From: a virus
Lineage: Duplodnaviria > Heunggongvirae > Uroviricota > Caudoviricetes
Length of the DNA: 7,937 nt
IMG/VR virus record: IMGVR_UViG_3300001919_000129
Reading direction: 5' to 3' (one strand)
Part shown: piece after piece, positions 2-7,797 of the stretch
Numbering within the stretch: position 1 is the first letter of the stretch
Layout: every line of letters starts with the position of its first letter
Program-made: the position numbers and the translations under genes
Notes under the pieces: model-generated
Told to the model about the DNA's origin: nothing
Database searches by the model: none
Seen by the model: the letters and a program-made list of their open reading frames with translations, nothing else

Positions 2-1300
2 ACGCTTCAGCTTATCAGGCAGAACAATGATATTGAGCGTTCAGGCGCTAACAATGTTGGGCTGACTGCTTTGCAAGGCCTTTCAGGTATTGCGGGGGTG
101 TTTCAGCAGGAAAAGCAGGCTCAGCGGCAGAAAGAATTTCAGCAGGCATACGCTAATGCTTATGCGTCTGGTGATCGCGGTGCTTTGCGTCAGTTGGCTA
201 CTCAATATCCAGACCAGATTGAATCCGTTCGTAAAGGCATGGGATTCATTGATGAAGATCAGCGTAATTCTATCGGCACCTTAGCGGCTGGCGCACGCCT
301 TGCGTCATCGTCTCCAGAAGCAATGCAATCATGGCTGCAAAACAACGCCAAGGAACTGACTCGCGTCGGTGTTGACCCCAACAGCGTTGCTCAGATGTAT
401 CAGCAGAATCCTTCAGGATTTGGTGAGTTTGTTGATCACCTTGGGATGGCTGCTCTTGGTCCGATTGATTACTTCAATGTTCAGGACAAGATGGCTGGTC
501 GTGAGATTGATCGCGGAAAACTTGCAGAGACAATCCGCAGCAATCAGGCTGGCGAGGCGCTAACAGCACGAGGCCAGAACATCACGATGCGCGGGCAGGA
601 CTTATCTGCTTCTACTGCGCGACGCGGGCAGGATTTGGCAATGCAGCGAGCGTCAACAAGAGGAACCGCTGGGAATGATGAGCGTACAGTTCAGTTATCA
701 GATGGCAGAACTGTAACGGTAGGCGGGAAGCTTCACGGCGCTGGGGCTAATGCGTTCTACGAAGGCATCGACAACGAGGGGAATATGGTTCGCGTTCCTG
801 CCAGTTCAATCGCAGCGCCTGCAACATCGTCTGCATCAGCACAAAACTATGCCATGAAGAAGGATATCGACGCGATCGCAAATGCAGACGCTTCTGCTCT
901 CGATTTCATGACAGGAATGACAGGCGGTGCAGGTAATCCAGCAATTGGTGCTGATGTTCGCAGCCGATTAACAGGAAAAGAGCAGCGCCAGTTATATAAC
1001 TCAGCACAACGTATTCAGGGCAGAATGCAGAATCAGGGTGTGGCGGCAGCAAGGGACATGGGTGCCAGTGGTATTAACACCGTTGCAGAAGCGAAGATGT
1101 ATTTTCAGGGGATGCCGCAGGTTGACTATTCAAGCCCGGAGGCTATGCAGCAGTCGATTCGTGAGATTCAGGAATACACCAACAATTACAACCAACAATA
1201 TAACGTTAATGTTGGTAAATCTCAGCGGCAGCAATCTCAACCTGCACAGGTATCACAGCCAGCAGCCAGCAGTAACTTTTCTTCACTATGGGGTGATTAA
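2..1300 (+). CDS. Virion ejection (internal) protein, P22 gp20-like by position; 5'-truncated by the window edge
   Basis: Reading frame is open from position 2 with no upstream stop, so the start at 71 in the ORF track is an internal TTG. Stop TAA at 1298-1300 overlaps the next start (TAATG). Assignment is by synteny, immediately upstream of a about 665-aa gp16-like gene and the tailspike. Protein is Q/A-rich with internal repeats. Confidence 0.6.
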
Positions 1301-3297
1301 TGGCTAAAGCATGGAAAGATGTTATCGCCTCTCCACAGTATCAGGCGTTAGCACCAGAACAAAAAGCGCAGGCTCAGGAGCAATACTTCAATGAAGTCGT
1401 TGCCCCGCAAGCCGGAGAAAATGCAGAGCAGGCTAAGCAAGCTTTCTATGCTGCCTATCCATTGCCATCTGTGCAGCCAGTGGAGACACAACAACCAGTA
1501 TCACAGCAACAACCACAGCAAAGTGGATTTATGTCGGATCTTGGTGAAGCCGTGAAAGAAACTGGTCGCGGACTGGTGCAGACTGGCGTGAACGTGGCAA
1601 ACATACCTGCATCAGTTGCCGATGCTGTAACAAGCGCGGCAGCTTGGGCTGGCGGTAAACTCGGCATTGGCGATGGTACATATCAACCAGCGCCACGAGT
1701 AACAACGCAGGGATTAGAGCAGGACTTTGGCCTTCAGCAAGGCGCGCTGACTCCACAAACTACAGAGGGCAGGGTATTTGCTGAAGCATTGCCTTACCTC
1801 ACTCCTGCTGGCGTTGAGAGAGCGGCAACACAGGCACCAACACTTGCTGGTCGAATTGCTCAGGGGGCAACTCGCCTTCTCGCTGAAAACGCAGTTGGAT
1901 CACTTGCTGCAAATAGTGCGAAAGATGATGCGGAAGCACTCGCCACCGATTTAGGCGTTGGTGTGCTGGCTGGCGGTGCTATTAACGCTGCCGGACGTGG
2001 ATTAGGTGCTGCTTATCGTGGCGTTCGTGGTTCTATTGCGCCAGAAGCGCAGCAGGCTATCAGATTTGCAGAGCGTGAAGGAGTTCCTCTGCACACCACA
2101 GACCTGTTACAACCAACTTCCCGCGTCGGAAAAATGGCGCAGACTACAGCAGAAAATATCCCTCTGGCTGGCACAAGCGGAATGAGAGCAACGCAACAGG
2201 AAGCGAGAAGCCAGTTGGTGCAGAGATTTGCTGATAAATTCGGCGAGTACGATCCGGCAGTTGTTATTGACAGCCTTAAAGCGAAAACATCAGGAATTCG
2301 TCGTGCTGCCGGTAATCGACTGGAGCAGGTTCAGAATGCTATGGCTGGAGTAAACATTCAGCCTGTGCGAGCAATTCAGCAGATTGATACTGAGATATCT
2401 AACCTGCAGAAGCTTGGTAAGGTCGCTGATAACGAGACGATTTCAAAACTTCAATCCTATCGTGATGAGCTTATTCGCAATGCTGGTCCTGATGGTCCGG
2501 TAAATCTGGATTTGAAGCAATTAAGCGATCTGCGCAGCCAGTTCAGAATGGACGTGAAGGGGGAACGACCAGTGCTACCAAACCGTTCCGATGCTGCCAT
2601 TCAGCGCGTTTACAAGGCAATGACCGACGATATCAATGGTGCCATTGGGCAGAATCTTGGCAACGATACTCTCCGTAAATATCAGCAGGCCAATGCCGTC
2701 TATGCTGACGAAGCAGCGAAACTAAAGAATACCAGGCTGAAGAATGTTCTCATGAAAGGCGATCTGACGCCGGAAGTTGTCAACAACATGCTATTCAGCA
2801 AGAACAAATCGGAAATTAAGACTCTGTATAACTCAGTTGGTCGTGTTGGCAGGGCGCAAATGCGCAATGGCATCATTGGAAAGGCGATGGAGAAATCAGG
2901 TGGTTCCCCTGACCAGTTCCTTCGACAGCTTAACATCCTGCAAAACCAGACTGGCATCACATTTAAAGGTCAGGATGCTGCTTATCTGAAAGGATTGAAA
3001 AACTACCTTCAATCCACGCAACAGGCAGCAAAAGCGGCAGTAACAACACCAACAGGGCAGCAAACCATCCCGTTCATTATCGGGTATGGGACGGCAATGA
3101 ACCCGGCGACAACTGGCGCAGCGGTAAGCTACGGACTTCTTACTCGCGCCTATGAGAGCGAGCCATTCAGAAATGCAATGCTCCGAATGGCAAACACACC
3201 ACGCGGATCGACAGCGTTTGAGAAAGCCATGCAGCAAGCGCAAAAAGCGATTAATGCACTGACGCAGGGTGCTAAGTCTGATTCGTTGTCAGAATAG
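1300..3297 (+). CDS. Virion ejection (internal) protein, P22 gp16-like by position and size (665 aa)
   Basis: Long uninterrupted ORF, ATG overlapping the upstream stop (TAATG), GGGGTG Shine-Dalgarno-like motif just upstream. Size and position match the last ejection-protein gene of P22-like phages. Has a Q/P-rich linker near the N-terminus. Not verified by search. Confidence 0.6.
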   Translation: MAKAWKDVIASPQYQALAPEQKAQAQEQYFNEVVAPQAGENAEQAKQAFYAAYPLPSVQPVETQQPVSQQQPQQSGFMSDLGEAVKETGRGLVQTGVNVANIPASVADAVTSAAAWAGGKLGIGDGTYQPAPRVTTQGLEQDFGLQQGALTPQTTEGRVFAEALPYLTPAGVERAATQAPTLAGRIAQGATRLLAENAVGSLAANSAKDDAEALATDLGVGVLAGGAINAAGRGLGAAYRGVRGSIAPEAQQAIRFAEREGVPLHTTDLLQPTSRVGKMAQTTAENIPLAGTSGMRATQQEARSQLVQRFADKFGEYDPAVVIDSLKAKTSGIRRAAGNRLEQVQNAMAGVNIQPVRAIQQIDTEISNLQKLGKVADNETISKLQSYRDELIRNAGPDGPVNLDLKQLSDLRSQFRMDVKGERPVLPNRSDAAIQRVYKAMTDDINGAIGQNLGNDTLRKYQQANAVYADEAAKLKNTRLKNVLMKGDLTPEVVNNMLFSKNKSEIKTLYNSVGRVGRAQMRNGIIGKAMEKSGGSPDQFLRQLNILQNQTGITFKGQDAAYLKGLKNYLQSTQQAAKAAVTTPTGQQTIPFIIGYGTAMNPATTGAAVSYGLLTRAYESEPFRNAMLRMANTPRGSTAFEKAMQQAQKAINALTQGAKSDSLSE

Positions 3298-3387: not shown

Positions 3388-3873
3388 TTATCTGATGTTA
3401 CTGCTACTGTTGCATGTTACCGTGTTTCCAAATCCTGAATTGCAGTTTGTATATGTGTCAACTCGTGTTGGGTAATGTTGAGTTATAACAGGCTGGCGCG
3501 CTTTTTGCTCGATCGCTTGCATTGTGTTTACAGCCTGATAATTCAATAAAGCCTGCTGGAATGCTTGGCTTTGTGCTATTTGTTGGGCTTGTTCTTGGCT
3601 TTGTAATTGAACATAAAGATTCTGAAGCTCAAGTCTTGCCTGTGCGTCACTTATCTTGCCTTCATTGACACCTTGCCCGAGCATCTTTGCAGCAAGGACA
3701 TACAGCTTAGGTGTTGGTGCTGATGCCATGCGTGAGTCGTTCTTCACACTGGCATCAAGGCAATTAGCCATATCGCTAAGCTTTTGATAGCGTTGTTCGC
3801 AACTTGCTTGATAGTCACTTACTTTTGCGCATCCAACCAGCAGAAGCGGGATAATTAACAGTGATTTTTTCAT
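3388..3873 (-). CDS. Predicted lipoprotein (161 aa), function unknown, in the sieA-equivalent slot
   Basis: Start chosen at ATG 3873 (MKKSLLIIPLLLVGC...) because AAGGAG lies about 10 nt upstream; the ORF-track start at 3909 adds 12 residues before the signal peptide and has no SD. N-terminus is a classic signal peptide ending in a lipobox LVGC, with Ala at +2 (not an inner-membrane retention residue). Mature part has a Q-rich helical-looking segment and four further Cys. Sits 70 bp downstream of mnt on the same strand. Confidence 0.7.
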   Translation of the reverse strand: MKKSLLIIPLLLVGCAKVSDYQASCEQRYQKLSDMANCLDASVKNDSRMASAPTPKLYVLAAKMLGQGVNEGKISDAQARLELQNLYVQLQSQEQAQQIAQSQAFQQALLNYQAVNTMQAIEQKARQPVITQHYPTRVDTYTNCNSGFGNTVTCNSSSNIR

Positions 3874-3943: not shown

Positions 3944-4210
3944 CTATGTTTCCTTTTTATTATTGCTATACATGGTCTTAAGCGTTTCAAAAACCATTTT
4001 CTTAACCATATCAGATTGTTGTTCTGCCATACGCTCTGCATCGTCAATGTAAACGGATGCAGAGCTTTGTTTAGCCAACGATTCTTCAATCGCTGCAATT
4101 ATCTCTGAGTTCAGCGATCTGTTATTCATCTTCGCACGCTGCTTAATTTTCGCGTGGAGTTCATGCGGAAGTCTCAAGTGAAACTGCGCCTCGTCGTATT
4201 TACTGTACAT
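3944..4210 (-). CDS. mnt: Mnt-family ribbon-helix-helix transcriptional repressor (88 aa)
   Basis: Aligns along its full length with P22 Mnt as I recall it: N-terminal RHH strand QFHLRLP versus HFNFRMP, the RSLNSEI helix versus RSMNSEL, and C-terminal DDAERMAEQQSDMVKKMVFETLKTMY versus NDAERLADEQSELVKKMVFDTLKDLY. Start set at ATG 4210 (MYSKYDE...) to match the P22 Mnt N-terminus; an in-frame ATG at 4243 is an alternative. Confidence 0.85.
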   Translation of the reverse strand: MYSKYDEAQFHLRLPHELHAKIKQRAKMNNRSLNSEIIAAIEESLAKQSSASVYIDDAERMAEQQSDMVKKMVFETLKTMYSNNKKET

Positions 4211-4331
4211 CCTTGATGCCTCACCAGTTGGGTGGAATGGCATCGTAACCTACTGGATAAATACTCAATAGTACCATTTCGGTATGCAATCACATCATGG
4301 TTGCATCATATCATTCGTCTGGAGTAATGAA
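4211..4331. promoter_or_regulatory. Divergent control region between mnt (leftward) and tailspike (rightward); candidate operator and promoters
   Basis: AT-rich 120-bp spacer between divergent genes. Inverted repeat ATGCAA (4284-4289) / TTGCAT (4301-4306); short palindrome TACTCAATAGTA (4262-4273); TATCAT at 4309-4314; GGAG SD at 4321-4324 for the tailspike. Exact -35/-10 elements could not be fixed by eye. Confidence 0.4.
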
Positions 4332-6515
4332 ATGTCAGATATCACCGCAAATGTTGTGGTAAGCATGCCTTCGCAACTCTTCACTATGGCGCGTTCTTTT
4401 AAAGCGGTTGCCAATGGCAAAATTTATATCGGAAAAATTGACACTGACCCGGTAAATCCAGAAAACCAGATCCAGGTTTATGTGGAGAACGAAGATGGCT
4501 CTCATGTTCCTGTTTCGCAACCAATCATCATTAACGCTGCCGGATATCCGGTATATAACGGACAGATTGCCAAATTCGTTACCGTGCAAGGCCATTCTAT
4601 GGCTGTTTATGATGCATATGGTGCTCAGCAATTCTATTTCCCTAATGTGCTGAAGTATGATCCAGACCAATTTAAGAACCAATTGCTTATACTAGATGAA
4701 ACAGCACAGGATTTTAATCAGACAAAACCTTACATTATTCAAAGCGTTTCTCAGTTGCTGCAGAAAGACTTTACTGGTATTGAAAAAATAACAGTTTTCA
4801 CATACATGAACCAGCACGGAATAAAAGTGAAATCTGAATGGTATGTTGGATTAGAGAAGATAGATAATACTTATTCACTCAATCTTCCAAATGGTTATTT
4901 TGCTAATTTAATCCTTACATCTGAGATGGACTATTCAGAGTTTGGCTTTGGAAGTTCAGACCCGGAAAAAAATTCCGCAGCGATTGCCGAGGCTTGTAGA
5001 GTTGCTCGCGCAAATCAGATTATGAGCAAACTCACATTCCCGTCAGGAGTTTACTTTTCTGATAAGTTTGATTTAGATGTTGATCGCCGTGGTTTTATTT
5101 TTTCAGGAGCTGGAAATGACGCAACAATAATCATGTCAACGTCATCTAACATATCGATGCACCATGTGGGAATTGATCCTCGCGACAGGAGCAGAGATCG
5201 TCTCCACTGGCACCAAACAGTTGAAGGTTTCACCGTAAATGGAAACATTTCTAATAATGGCGCTAGTGCATCAGCAAGAGCCGTATACACAGCTCCTTAT
5301 GCTACTATTAGAAATAAATCAATTGATCACCGCATCAGTAATTATGATCTTTTACATCTGGTTATTAATTGGCATGGTCATTCGCAAGGAACAACAAATG
5401 GCTCCACCAGAACTAAGTATGGTGTTCGCGTTAGAAATAACTCTATCAAATTAATGGGTTACATTGGGAGCAGCGCTAACAATCAGTGTACTTTGTCTAT
5501 TGAAGGTATGAGCACAACCCTGACATCTACAGCATATGTAAATGACAACACTGTTACTGTTGCTGATGCTTCTGGTTTTGATACGTTGTTTGAAATTGCA
5601 TTCACCAATTCAACTGGAGGTGTAGAGACACGTCGTATCACAGCAATCTCGGGAAACGTTATAACACTTGATAGACCAATGACGTCTGAGTTCCAGTCTG
5701 GGACTAAGGTTGAAGTTCCCATTATTGGGACGTCAGTAATTTCAAGTACAATTGAAACTGGTGAGATAAGAATTGGTGACAGTCAGGCAACTTATATCGC
5801 AGGAAACTACAGCGAAGAGGCAAAGATGTATATAACAAAATACGTTAGAGCTTTGACTGTCACTGGAACATCAACAGCAGAGGCTTCACCGGCTATTACA
5901 ATTGAAGTAGACAGGCGTTCATCTATAAAAATTGAAGGAAATGACACTACGTTTTCTATCTCGGTAAACATAACAGACCGTTCTGGAAGTGTTGGTGAAC
6001 GCATTGACCTATACAATGCGCCTAAGCTGGATATTAAAATGAACACTCGTGCTCAAAATTCAATTATCTTGAATGGGGTATATGGATTCAGCAGCCTTCG
6101 TATTGAAAAGACGTTCGATTCTGTTTCTCAGGATGAAAGATTTAACCGGATGACTTTCTCTGGCTTCAATCACGTTGCACCTGCTGGAGGTTCAGTCACT
6201 GAAGTTATGAAATTTTTTCAGGATGCTACACAGTTCGGGTTTGATGGTTACACGTTTGACCTGGATATTACGTGCAGGAGGGATGGTGCTTCTGCAGCTG
6301 TTACGCCTGGCATACTGAAGCGATACGGGACATCATCAGCTGCACCAGTTGCACAAAATTCTGCTCCAGTAAGTCTTTTTTCAGACTTTAATGAGATAAA
6401 TGGCTATAATGTCTTTATTGGCGCATCTGGTAATAGAGGTACAGTGCAAGTAAGGCCAAATCCAACATCACAAATAAAATCAACTATAAATGGCACTGTT
6501 ACTTCCATAATATAG
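4332..6515 (+). CDS. Tailspike protein (727 aa): P22 gp9-type N-terminal head-binding domain fused to a divergent receptor-binding domain
   Basis: Start at ATG 4332 ([10 protein letters not shown]...) with GGAG 7 nt upstream; the ORF-track start at 4284 is an in-frame upstream ATG inside the control region. Residues 1 to about 114 (through [10 protein letters not shown]) match the P22 gp9 N-terminal domain nearly residue for residue from memory. Downstream sequence is unrelated to P22 gp9 and visibly more AT-rich. Confidence 0.9.
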
Positions 6516-6595: not shown

Positions 6596-6617
6596 AAGGT
6601 GGATCACTCCACCTTTT
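6596..6617 (+). terminator. Candidate intrinsic terminator for the tailspike gene, overlapping the int stop codon
   Basis: Perfect 8-bp stem AAGGTGGA (6596-6603) / TCCACCTT (6608-6615) with 4-nt loop TCAC, followed by TT; the U-tract is short, so strength is uncertain. The complement of the int stop (6604-6606) lies in the loop. Confidence 0.3.
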
Positions 6618-7761
6618 CATCAAGCCAGTCCGCCCACCACTGCATCATTTCTCTGCGCTTATCGAGATACTGAGCATGGTTGTAAATCCCGCGCACAGAT
6701 CCGCCGTTGGCATGTGCCAGTTGCACTTCAATAGCATCAGCAGGCCATTCGTGCTCGTTCATAATCGTGCTGAATTCATGCCTGAATCCGTGACCGCTTT
6801 CCAGCCCTTCATAGCCAATTTGTTTGATCACAAGCAATACCGCGTTCTCGCAGATTGGCTTCTTCTTATCGTTGCGCCCGGCAAAAACAAACTCTGACAC
6901 TGGTTTAGTGATTGAGCTTAGCGTAGTGAGAAGTTCAATCACCTGGTCTGACATCGGTACTACATGAATCTTGCGGCCCTTCATCACACTGGCGTCGATG
7001 GTGATAATCCTGTTTTCAAAATCGACGTTCTTCCATAGCATGGAACGAAGCTCTTTTGTTCTGAGGGCTGTGTAGCGTAAAACTTTAGTCGCAATAAGCG
7101 ATACGATACTTCCTGAAAATGTTGCCAGTGCTTTATTGAATGCTGGGATCTGGTCGGCAGGTAAAAACGGGAAGTTCTTCTTGCGGTATCCCTTCATGGC
7201 GTCAGCAAGGTCAGGTGCCGGGTTATATTTAGCCCTACCGGTGACAATAGCGTAACGGAAAACCTCGCCGCATCTTCTGCGTGCTTTGTTGGCTCGTTCC
7301 ATTGCACCGCGATCTTCAAATCTGCGGATTACTTCCAGCAGTTGCATCGGCTCAATATCCTGAATTTCAAGGCCGCCGATGATAGGTAAAATGTCGTCAT
7401 CAAACATTTTTGCAAGTTCAGTTGCATAGCCTACTGACCAGACTTGCTTCTTGTGCTCGTACCATTCCTTGTAAATCGCACTAAATGAATTGTTGTTAGA
7501 CGAAGCCTTTTTCGCCTTTACCGGATCGATGCCAACCGAGATGTCTTTCCTCGCAGTCCATGCTTTATCCCTTGCCTCCTGCAAAGTCATAAGCGGATAT
7601 TTTCCGACGGTCAGGATTTTCTCCTTACCGTCAATCTTGTAGCGAAGCTGCCATACCTTTTTCCCGGATACAGGGACATAAAGGTACAGGCCATTACCAT
7701 CGAGAAGGCGATATGGTTTTTCTTTCGGCTTTGCTGCTTCAATCTGCTTAACGGTGAGCAT
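6604..7761 (-). CDS. intS: Tyrosine recombinase, P4/IntS-type phage integrase (385 aa)
   Basis: N-terminus MLTVKQIEAAKPKEKPYRLLDGNGLYLYV is the typical arm-binding (DUF4102-like) start of P4-family integrases, and the C-terminus carries catalytic-domain hallmarks (HGFRHEF..., VQLAHANGGSVRGIYNHAQY). Start set at ATG 7761; the ORF-track start at 7797 is a GTG that would fall at or upstream of the predicted transcript start. The intS symbol is assigned by family, size and tRNA adjacency, not by search. Confidence 0.88.
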   Translation of the reverse strand: MLTVKQIEAAKPKEKPYRLLDGNGLYLYVPVSGKKVWQLRYKIDGKEKILTVGKYPLMTLQEARDKAWTARKDISVGIDPVKAKKASSNNNSFSAIYKEWYEHKKQVWSVGYATELAKMFDDDILPIIGGLEIQDIEPMQLLEVIRRFEDRGAMERANKARRRCGEVFRYAIVTGRAKYNPAPDLADAMKGYRKKNFPFLPADQIPAFNKALATFSGSIVSLIATKVLRYTALRTKELRSMLWKNVDFENRIITIDASVMKGRKIHVVPMSDQVIELLTTLSSITKPVSEFVFAGRNDKKKPICENAVLLVIKQIGYEGLESGHGFRHEFSTIMNEHEWPADAIEVQLAHANGGSVRGIYNHAQYLDKRREMMQWWADWLDEKVE

Positions 7762-7797
7762 GGGTAAAAATCCGGTGGGTAAAATTATTTTATCCAC

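Follow-up and report, generated by a model that had tools for sequence, protein, structure and literature searches.

What does the repressor gene mnt control when it faces the tailspike gene directly, with neither arc nor ant between them? This question is raised by a 7,937-nt stretch of DNA from a tailed phage (Caudoviricetes; IMG/VR record IMGVR_UViG_3300001919_000129), hereafter the window, in which a 121-bp spacer (4211–4331) separates a leftward mnt-family gene from a rightward tailspike gene. A reading of the letters of this DNA alone (the sequence-only reading) had likened the spacer to the immI control region of phage P22, named two palindromes in it as candidate operators, and proposed that the tailspike gene is under an Mnt-controlled promoter. 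The homology to immI was borne out, with a predicted Mnt operator directly upstream of the tailspike gene and neither arc nor ant in between. The interpretation that we favor, with moderate confidence, is that a cut-down version of the P22 immI control region occupies the interval, carried by an ‘mnt-only’ P22-like prophage in which the tailspike gene would be expressed by late read-through and Mnt would be autoregulatory.

The protein encoded at 3944–4210 on the minus strand (88 aa) was assigned to the Mnt family by Pfam search and by alignment with P22 Mnt and Arc. Its N-terminal part matched the Arc ribbon-helix-helix family (PF03869, 1.1e-14) and its C-terminal part the tetramerisation family Repressor_Mnt (PF11423, 3.9e-12). 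Its identity to P22 Mnt is 47%, and among solved structures the best matches were PDB entries 1MNT (5.7e-19) and 1QEY (1.2e-6). The N-terminus aligned with P22 Mnt and Arc only from the ATG at 4210. A longer reading frame starting at 4243 was rejected; the extension is not conserved and has no counterpart in P22 Mnt or Arc, and the relatives are annotated with proteins of 84–86 aa. A likely mnt Shine-Dalgarno (SD) sequence, GGTGAGG (4219–4225, minus strand), ends 8 nt before the ATG at 4210 and falls within a CCTCACC block that is conserved in the relatives. On the other side of the spacer, the tailspike gene (4332–6515, plus strand, 727 aa) encodes a P22-type head-binding domain. Pfam Head_binding matched tailspike residues 1–113 (2.1e-67), and because this alignment begins at residue 1 the start codon was placed at 4332. 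The in-frame ATG at 4284 was rejected as the tailspike start for the same reason; a mechanical open reading frame (ORF) list that uses it places the start 16 codons too early. The tailspike SD sequence GGAG (4321–4324, plus strand) lies 7 nt before the ATG at 4332 and was invariant across all tailspike leaders that we compared. The spacer limits of the sequence-only reading were thus correct, because mnt starts with the ATG at 4210–4208 and the tailspike gene at 4332. Its description of the spacer as AT-rich did not hold up; with a GC content of 42.1%, compared to 40.4% in mnt and 40.3% in the tailspike gene, base composition is no distinguishing feature.

We compared the annotated P22 mnt–arc spacer with the spacers of the window and of Sf101, IME10, VSe13, JEP4, ST160, ST64T, L and 720R6, in all of which mnt faces the tailspike gene. 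The control regions of the window and P22 align via the shared sequence CTCAATAG, and the operator follows at an identical offset. The 17-bp element at this position is AGGTCCACgGTGGACCT in P22, where it is the annotated mnt operator, AAGACCACcGTGGTCTT in ST64T, L and ST160, and AGTACCATTTCGGTATG in the window (4270–4286, with the core GTACC-N5-GGTA at 4271–4284). CAAT is common to all of the phages compared (CTCAAT to many of them) and is followed directly by the 17-bp dyad; the window element aligns in this way with CTCAAT-AGGTCCACGGTGGACCT of P22 and with AAGACCACCGTGGTCTT of the ST64T type. Read on the other strand, the shared CAA gives the TTG of the Pmnt −35 element, so the operator stands 1 nt from the −35 in every phage compared. 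We conclude that 4270–4286 is likely to be the Mnt operator of this phage.

The recognition strand of this repressor family is known to use Gln9, Asn11 and Arg13 in Arc, and His6, Asn8 and Arg10 in Mnt. In the window Mnt the recognition strand reads Q-F-H-L-R. We found that three Mnt recognition-strand classes track three operator classes: H-F-N-F-R (P22 and epsilon34) is paired with AGGTCCACgGTGGACCT; Q-F-N-L-R, the same strand as in Arc (ST64T, L, ST160 and 720R6), with AAGACCACcGTGGTCTT; and Q-F-H-L-R, the class of the window, with GTACC..TTT..GGTA. This link held in both search directions. GTAC(C/T)-N-TTT-N-GGTA was present in 12 of 12 loci that had been found through the Mnt protein, a set that includes Escherichia sp., Buttiauxella, Serratia and Citrobacter. 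When IMG/VR was scanned instead for the operator motif, 116 usable contexts were obtained, 84 of them distinct, and every context with an adjoining Mnt-like gene encoded Q-F-H-L-R. Among these was a divergent Mnt (MEELETQFHLR) whose operator, AGTACCAtttTGGTACT, is the best, near-perfect 17-bp dyad. From the constant co-occurrence of protein class and operator class we infer that Mnt binds to 4270–4286. None of the 84 distinct contexts combined the window operator class with an intact arc–ant module. The motif is single-copy in the window and in the whole 38.7-kb Sf101 genome, and no second operator was found in either at up to two mismatches; thus, no distant target is evident.

We then scored sigma-70 sites with a simple position matrix, using the P22 promoters as controls. 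P22 Pant (TTGACA-17-TATATT) scored 16.5 bits and P22 Pmnt (TTGAGA-17-TATCAT) scored 14.2 bits. The positional homologue of Pant in the window, ATGGCA-17-AATACT (4237–4265, plus strand), was the best rightward candidate, with a score of 7.2 bits. As sites of at least 7 bits occur about 5.7 times per kb per strand in the window (about 0.9 times at 9 bits or more), the Pant homologue is at background level. Rightward scores did not exceed 7.2 bits in any mnt-only relative, and the Pant −10 position in the relatives reads TATATC, TGTATC, TGCATC or CAAATC, all of which are without the essential final T. A consensus scan found no rightward promoter site in the window spacer, and the strong rightward promoter that overlaps the operator in the P22-type Omnt system was not found in the window. 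Thus, of the proposal that P22 logic puts the tailspike gene under an Mnt-controlled promoter, the predicted operator upstream of the gene was supported and the promoter was not, its Pant homologue being degenerate. The accompanying remark that no convincing sigma-70 hexamers could be recognized by eye holds for the rightward strand.

On the minus strand, the homologue of the Pmnt −10 element is TACGAT (4242–4247), at the same position as TATCAT of P22 Pmnt, and that of the −35 element is TTGAGT (4263–4268), 1 nt from the operator as in P22. The plus-strand version of the −10 element, ATCGTA, was invariant in 12 of 12 protein-anchored loci, those from Buttiauxella and Serratia included, and the pattern TA..AT is kept across the three Mnt classes. 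The CAA that complements the −35 TTG was likewise invariant in the protein-anchored loci, in surroundings that vary. Among the conserved islands of these 12 spacers were the operator, the Pmnt −10, the TTG of its −35 and, in a hairpin at 4214–4245 described below, the two arms; conservation collapsed downstream of the operator. These comparisons suggest that Pmnt and the operator, but not Pant, are under constraint. Leftward Pmnt homologues scored 8.6 to 10.7 bits in most relatives, with TTGTGG-17-TATGAT of ST64T at 10.3 bits, TTGAGG-17-TAAGAT of 720R6 at 10.7 bits, and TTGTTG-17-TACGAT, found in most of the window class, at 8.6 bits. The direction of promoter conservation thus appears clear, namely leftward, although the exact leftward start in the window does not.

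According to the model that we favor, this locus would have retained the mnt gene, the leftward Pmnt (−10 at 4247–4242, −35 at 4268–4263) and a single 17-bp operator abutting the Pmnt −35. This operator would represent a third specificity class, GTACC-N5-GGTA(C/T), matched to the Mnt strand Q-F-H-L-R. The rightward Pant, which in P22 overlaps the operator and drives arc and ant, would have decayed to background, and arc and ant would have been lost. With Pant decayed and arc and ant gone, the tailspike gene would most likely be transcribed by read-through from the late operon across the antisense mnt gene. Terminator scans detected no plus-strand terminator-like site between 3297 and 4332, that is, between the end of the gp16 gene and the tailspike start, which is consistent with late read-through. 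Mnt bound at its sole operator would most likely regulate its own transcript, in whichever direction, and that transcript would probably include the downstream lipoprotein gene. Mnt would also silence any residual rightward initiation.

The two palindromes that the sequence-only reading had proposed as operators are both present, and both are missing from most relatives with the same recognition strand; the element at the Omnt position is AGTACCATTTCGGTATG instead. The smaller palindrome, TACTCAATAGTA, lies at 4262–4273 with 4-nt arms around CAAT. This palindrome, TACTcaatAGTA, covers the Pmnt −35 together with the operator's first 4 nt, and it has been lost from VSe13, JEP4, EC571, A28, LAM_HS and loci L019–L022, which read AATCAACAATCGTA or similar. 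With arms of only 4 nt and no conservation it was rejected as an operator, and we regard it as a chance feature. The larger inverted repeat consists of ATGCAA (4284–4289) and TTGCAT (4301–4306) and extends to 9-nt arms, ATGCAATCA and TGGTTGCAT (4284–4292 and 4298–4306), with one T·G position and a 5-nt loop. When the 121-bp spacer was shuffled 2000 times with its dinucleotides preserved, 17% of the shuffles contained an inverted repeat that was 9 nt or longer and had no more than one mismatch, and 39% contained a perfect one of 6 nt or longer. Neither repeat is significant in this one sequence, because an equal or better one was found in 17% of the shuffles. The left arm of the larger repeat overlaps the right edge of the operator in the window, and the right arm is a motif of the conserved tailspike leader, TTGCATC (CCTTGCATCTGGAG in P22), which in this leader type a deletion has brought beside the operator.

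Comparison among relatives instead suggested that the larger repeat acts as RNA. In the plus-strand transcript, 4284–4306 would form a stem-loop in the tailspike 5′ leader, with a 9-bp stem that includes one U·G pair and a 5-nt loop, ending 14 nt before the GGAG. Across 17 distinct variants of this leader type, 98% of the cells were paired. The changes within the stem included C-G to U·G at one pair, three times, a U·G/U-A/C-G series at another pair, and one compensatory change from G-C to U-A, found in Escherichia sp. E1V33 and in one IMG/VR contig. The observed paired fraction or covariation score was reached by 3 of 500 shuffles. The G·U-preserving changes keep the plus-strand RNA helix and break the symmetry of the DNA dyad, which is why we read the repeat as an RNA element; on the minus strand the same changes would be A·C mismatches. 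The stem was present in both the minimum-free-energy and the centroid folds, with a folding z-score of only −1.2, and single-sequence folding energies were not distinguishable from those of shuffles (z = −1.2 and −0.5). An intrinsic terminator was considered and rejected because no U-tract follows the A/U-rich stem; the sequence that follows is CAUAUCAUUCG, and the terminator scans do not report the site.

Most P22-like phages carry a different hairpin in the tailspike leader, the 7-bp CCGUAGC-cau-GCUGCGG and variants thereof, which ends 15 nt before the GGAG. Its carriers include ST64T (L011), P22 (L004), loci L016 and L019, and many IMG/VR loci, in which it lies about 40–25 nt upstream of the tailspike ATG. 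Its compensatory changes were G-C to A-U (three times) and to U-A (twice), and C-G to G-C (three times) and to A-U (once). The hairpin of the window resembles it in being a plus-strand stem of 7–9 bp, at a near-equal distance from the SD sequence, whose pairing is maintained by wobble and compensatory changes; it differs in its unrelated sequence and in having a left arm that overlaps the operator edge. Because the window stem-loop sits where other P22-like phages have this unrelated covarying hairpin, 4284–4306 is probably a leader element, rather than a protein-binding site, that would affect mRNA stability, processing or translation. Neither leader hairpin matched an Rfam family, and no description of either was found in the papers that we read. 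An Rfam 15 search of the spacer gave only chance-level hits (E > 1), with nothing in the window at gathering score; the sar RNA family was found in P22 and not in the window. RNAalifold over the leader and first codons gave nothing usable, as the divergent leaders aligned poorly.

The second hairpin is a two-part palindrome, GAUGCC-U-CACC-aguug-GGUG-gaau-GGCAUC (4214–4245, plus strand), with outer arms at 4215–4220 and 4239–4244. It overlaps the Pmnt −10 and the mnt 5′ untranslated region and has no U-tract. RNAalifold on 17 distinct relatives kept 12 pairs, and the U·G and G·U variants pair only on the plus strand. This hairpin is also kept in the ST64T-type phages.

Several observations weigh against the autoregulatory, read-through model. 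The operator dyad of the window is a poor one: only 4 of its 8 pairs are symmetric, and some relatives have 6 or 7. The Pmnt spacer measures 17 bp in most relatives but 15 bp in the window, Sf101, LAM_HS and L018, owing to a 2-bp deletion; at 7.5 bits the resulting TTGAGT-15-TACGAT would be a very weak promoter, if it is one. The real leftward promoter of the window may instead be ATTTCA-17-TATGAT with an extended −10 TG (4333–4305, minus strand), which at 9.25 bits is the best in the spacer and is overlapped by CTGACA-17-AATGAT (4338–4310, minus strand, 8.7 bits), or an extended −10 TACTAT (4273–4268, minus strand) that overlaps the operator. The 4333–4305 candidate is found only in this leader type, so conservation cannot check it. 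The matrix used for promoter scoring is a crude one, on which a genuine but weak promoter can score 7 bits. The support for the leader hairpin comes from closely related sequences with one compensatory event, 3 of 500 shuffles and a z-score of −1.2. Lastly, the model leaves unexplained what selection keeps the tight match between operator and protein if Pant is dead.

An Mnt-repressible rightward promoter as the direct source of tailspike transcripts is a possibility that we regard as unlikely. ATGGCA-17-AATACT would initiate near 4272; its hexamers, 17 bp apart, occupy the place of Pant and retain A2 and T6, the key −10 bases, and the operator would cover the start site as in P22. Continued selection on the operator–protein match needs a target, the complete genome of a relative contains no other operator, and the ant moron may influence tailspike levels (PMC2629481). 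If this promoter were active, the repressor would shut off a structural gene in lysogens and allow early tailspike synthesis on infection. Against it, a 7.2-bit score is at background frequency, the consensus scan gave no rightward site, and the register of the hexamers arises only in the subtype with the 2-bp deletion. Moreover, relatives with the same Mnt and operator have CAAATC, and the ST64T type has TATATC, TGTATC or TGCATC, without the essential final T. A local promoter would not be needed if Mnt acted as a roadblock or gate at the operator, throttling read-through into the tailspike gene, as was raised for P22 (PMC2629481). The single operator on the only late-transcription path into the tailspike gene, the tight tetramers formed by the Mnt family, whose tetramerisation domain is present here, and the retention of the operator after the loss of Pant would all fit this idea. 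Its basis is purely positional, however; late complexes modified by a Q-type antiterminator, and trailing polymerases, usually displace repressors, and one Serratia relative already has a terminator between the operator and the gene that follows. We therefore consider a roadblock rather improbable. A broader version is that Mnt has been repurposed as a gate between the late operon and the tailspike gene, where it would be a roadblock or would hold down a weak residual promoter, in concert with a plus-strand leader structured by the 4214–4245 hairpin, the operator dyad and the 4284–4306 hairpin. We hold this claim, leader included, to be doubtful; if true, it would set the amount of tailspike in lysogens and after induction, and an immunity repressor would have turned into a regulator of a virion structural gene.

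The two remaining alternatives seem to us less probable still. That the spacer and mnt together are a decaying, functionless immI remnant was raised by the authors of the phage L study (PMC8022706), and the loss of Pant, arc and ant, the imperfect operator dyad, the 15-bp Pmnt spacer and a Citrobacter relative with an mnt stop codon and degraded operator all point in that direction. However, the mnt ORF of the window is intact, relatives from Escherichia, Shigella, Salmonella, Buttiauxella and Serratia share invariant operator and Pmnt elements amid diverging flanks, and the three classes keep matched protein–operator pairs; decay is thus quite improbable. Very little probability attaches to the idea that Mnt, or some other dimeric regulator, uses the ATGCAATCA/TGGTTGCAT repeat as a DNA operator. 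No dyad in the spacer is larger; the repeat runs into the right edge of the predicted operator, and all close relatives keep it. It is absent, however, from VSe13, JEP4, EC571, A28, LAM_HS, L019 and L021, which have the same recognition strand; its right arm is a leader motif brought close by deletion; its substitutions keep RNA pairing via G·U while breaking DNA symmetry; and it was not significant in shuffles. As an operator for Mnt in particular it was rejected on these comparative grounds.

Our preferred reading, a reduced immI region with late read-through and Mnt autoregulation, makes the locus an ordinary, widespread variant of the P22 immI switch, with a new specificity class in a known layout. 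The epsilon34 paper (PMC2629481) treats the ‘ant moron’ found between genes 16 and 9 as variable: in ST64T, ST104 and a Paratyphi prophage it consists of mnt alone, and the amount of late transcription that enters the tailspike gene may be affected by it. The sequence-only reading had called a direct link between mnt and the tailspike gene unusual, a layout that was in fact known for ST64T, ST104 and L (PMC2629481, PMC8022706). The mnt-only layout is also seen in Sf101, IME10, ST160, VSe13, JEP4 and 720R6. In the window mnt lies without arc or ant between the gp16 gene and the tailspike gene, as it does in ST64T, L, ST160, 720R6, VSe13 and Sf101. We found no transcription-start or functional reports on mnt-only phages in the literature, and the Sf101 genome paper does not mention mnt.

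Compared to P22 immI, the window has the same orientation of mnt and the same two-domain repressor architecture; the shared CTCAATAG leads into a 17-bp operator that stands 1 nt from the Pmnt −35, and the Pmnt −10 is in the same place. It differs as follows: neither arc nor ant is among its ORFs, sar RNA and the Arc operator are likewise missing, and the tailspike gene itself lies directly downstream, its start codon 46 nt past the operator. The Pant score is 16.5 bits in P22 and 7.2 bits in the window, and GGTCCAC-G-GTGGACC with H-F-N-F-R in P22 corresponds to GTACC-N5-GGTAT with Q-F-H-L-R in the window. The mnt-only morons of ST64T, ST104, L, SE1 and ST160 resemble the window in that mnt and the tailspike gene diverge across about 120–146 bp, arc and ant are absent, Pant survives as a weak vestige, Pmnt is conserved and there is one dyad operator. 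They differ in pairing Q-F-N-L-R with AAGACCACcGTGGTCTT and in their tailspike leader and hairpin, and the window has in addition a lipoprotein gene downstream of mnt. Closest are Sf101 and IME10 (Lederbergvirus of Shigella and E. coli), which have the same mnt, spacer, operator and leader hairpin at 96% nucleotide identity; the receptor-binding domain of the tailspike and the neighboring genes differ, and mnt is misannotated there. Positions 3944–4400 of the window are 100% identical to E. coli strain JX2, and at least 80% of this query was found in 254 of 5426 complete E. coli genomes.

ORF mapping and domain searches identified the window as the right end of the late operon of a P22-like (Lederbergvirus) prophage. 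A gp20-like injection protein (71–1300, plus strand) and a gp16-like injection protein (1300–3297, plus strand) are followed by a lipoprotein ORF (3388–3873, minus strand), mnt and the tailspike gene, and a P4-type integrase (6604–7797, minus strand) lies beyond. The lipoprotein ORF has a signal peptide, the lipobox LLVGC and a strong AAGGAG ribosome-binding site; its match is phrog_6067 (unknown function), and it hit no Pfam family. The end of mnt lies 70 nt upstream of it, no terminator intervenes, and the two genes are probably cotranscribed, which is a possible reason for the retention of Pmnt.

After the 113-residue head-binding domain, the remaining ~600 tailspike residues (4671–6515, plus strand) have no Pfam match, and the receptor-binding part is unlike that of Sf101 and other relatives. 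As this part differs among relatives, it amounts to a host-range module swapped at the domain boundary. In E. coli PK8568 (L017, 1866–2375) and in loci L139 and L057, a minus-strand HNH/NUMOD-type endonuclease gene follows the first five tailspike codons (ATGTCAGATATCACC), after which a fresh leader and tailspike start are found. At this same junction JEP4 (L003) carries about 300 bp of inserted sequence, which follows ATGACAGAT and has no annotated endonuclease gene. The junction after the first tailspike codons looks like a recurrent insertion or module-exchange point.

Some relatives showed further features at mnt and its operator. In the Citrobacter sp. locus L022 (~1501) an in-frame stop is present at mnt codon 5 (MYSK*) and the operator is degraded (GTACTA rather than GTACCA); protein and site look to be decaying together. 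In Serratia marcescens (L021) a clear rho-independent terminator, AAGCCAGCC-taac-CGCTGGCTTTTTTT, lies about 90 nt to the right of the operator and separates it from the next gene, which is not a P22-type head-binding tailspike. In Sf101 (L001/L144, 14284–14577) and in several RefSeq phage records the mnt homologue is labelled ‘partition protein ATPase’ or ‘chromosome segregation ATPase’, and its start is placed too far upstream, a misannotation spread via PHROG-based naming.

Our additions to the known layout are modest: a third operator and recognition-strand class, apparent constraint on Pmnt and the operator but not on Pant, and the leader hairpins. The practical impact is modest as well. 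Because mnt is often mislabelled as a partition protein ATPase and the spacer is left blank in annotations, the present analysis provides an explanation of the region, and it flags small covarying hairpins in tailspike leaders that lie outside any Rfam family. A third natural pairing of Mnt strand and operator, Q-F-H-L-R with GTACC-N5-GGTAC, would be useful for the problem of Arc/Mnt ribbon-helix-helix recognition, which has long been studied. What mnt does without arc and ant was left open by the phage L and epsilon34 genome papers. That question is sharpened here, and the conserved Pmnt elements, the decayed Pant and the single operator make it directly testable.

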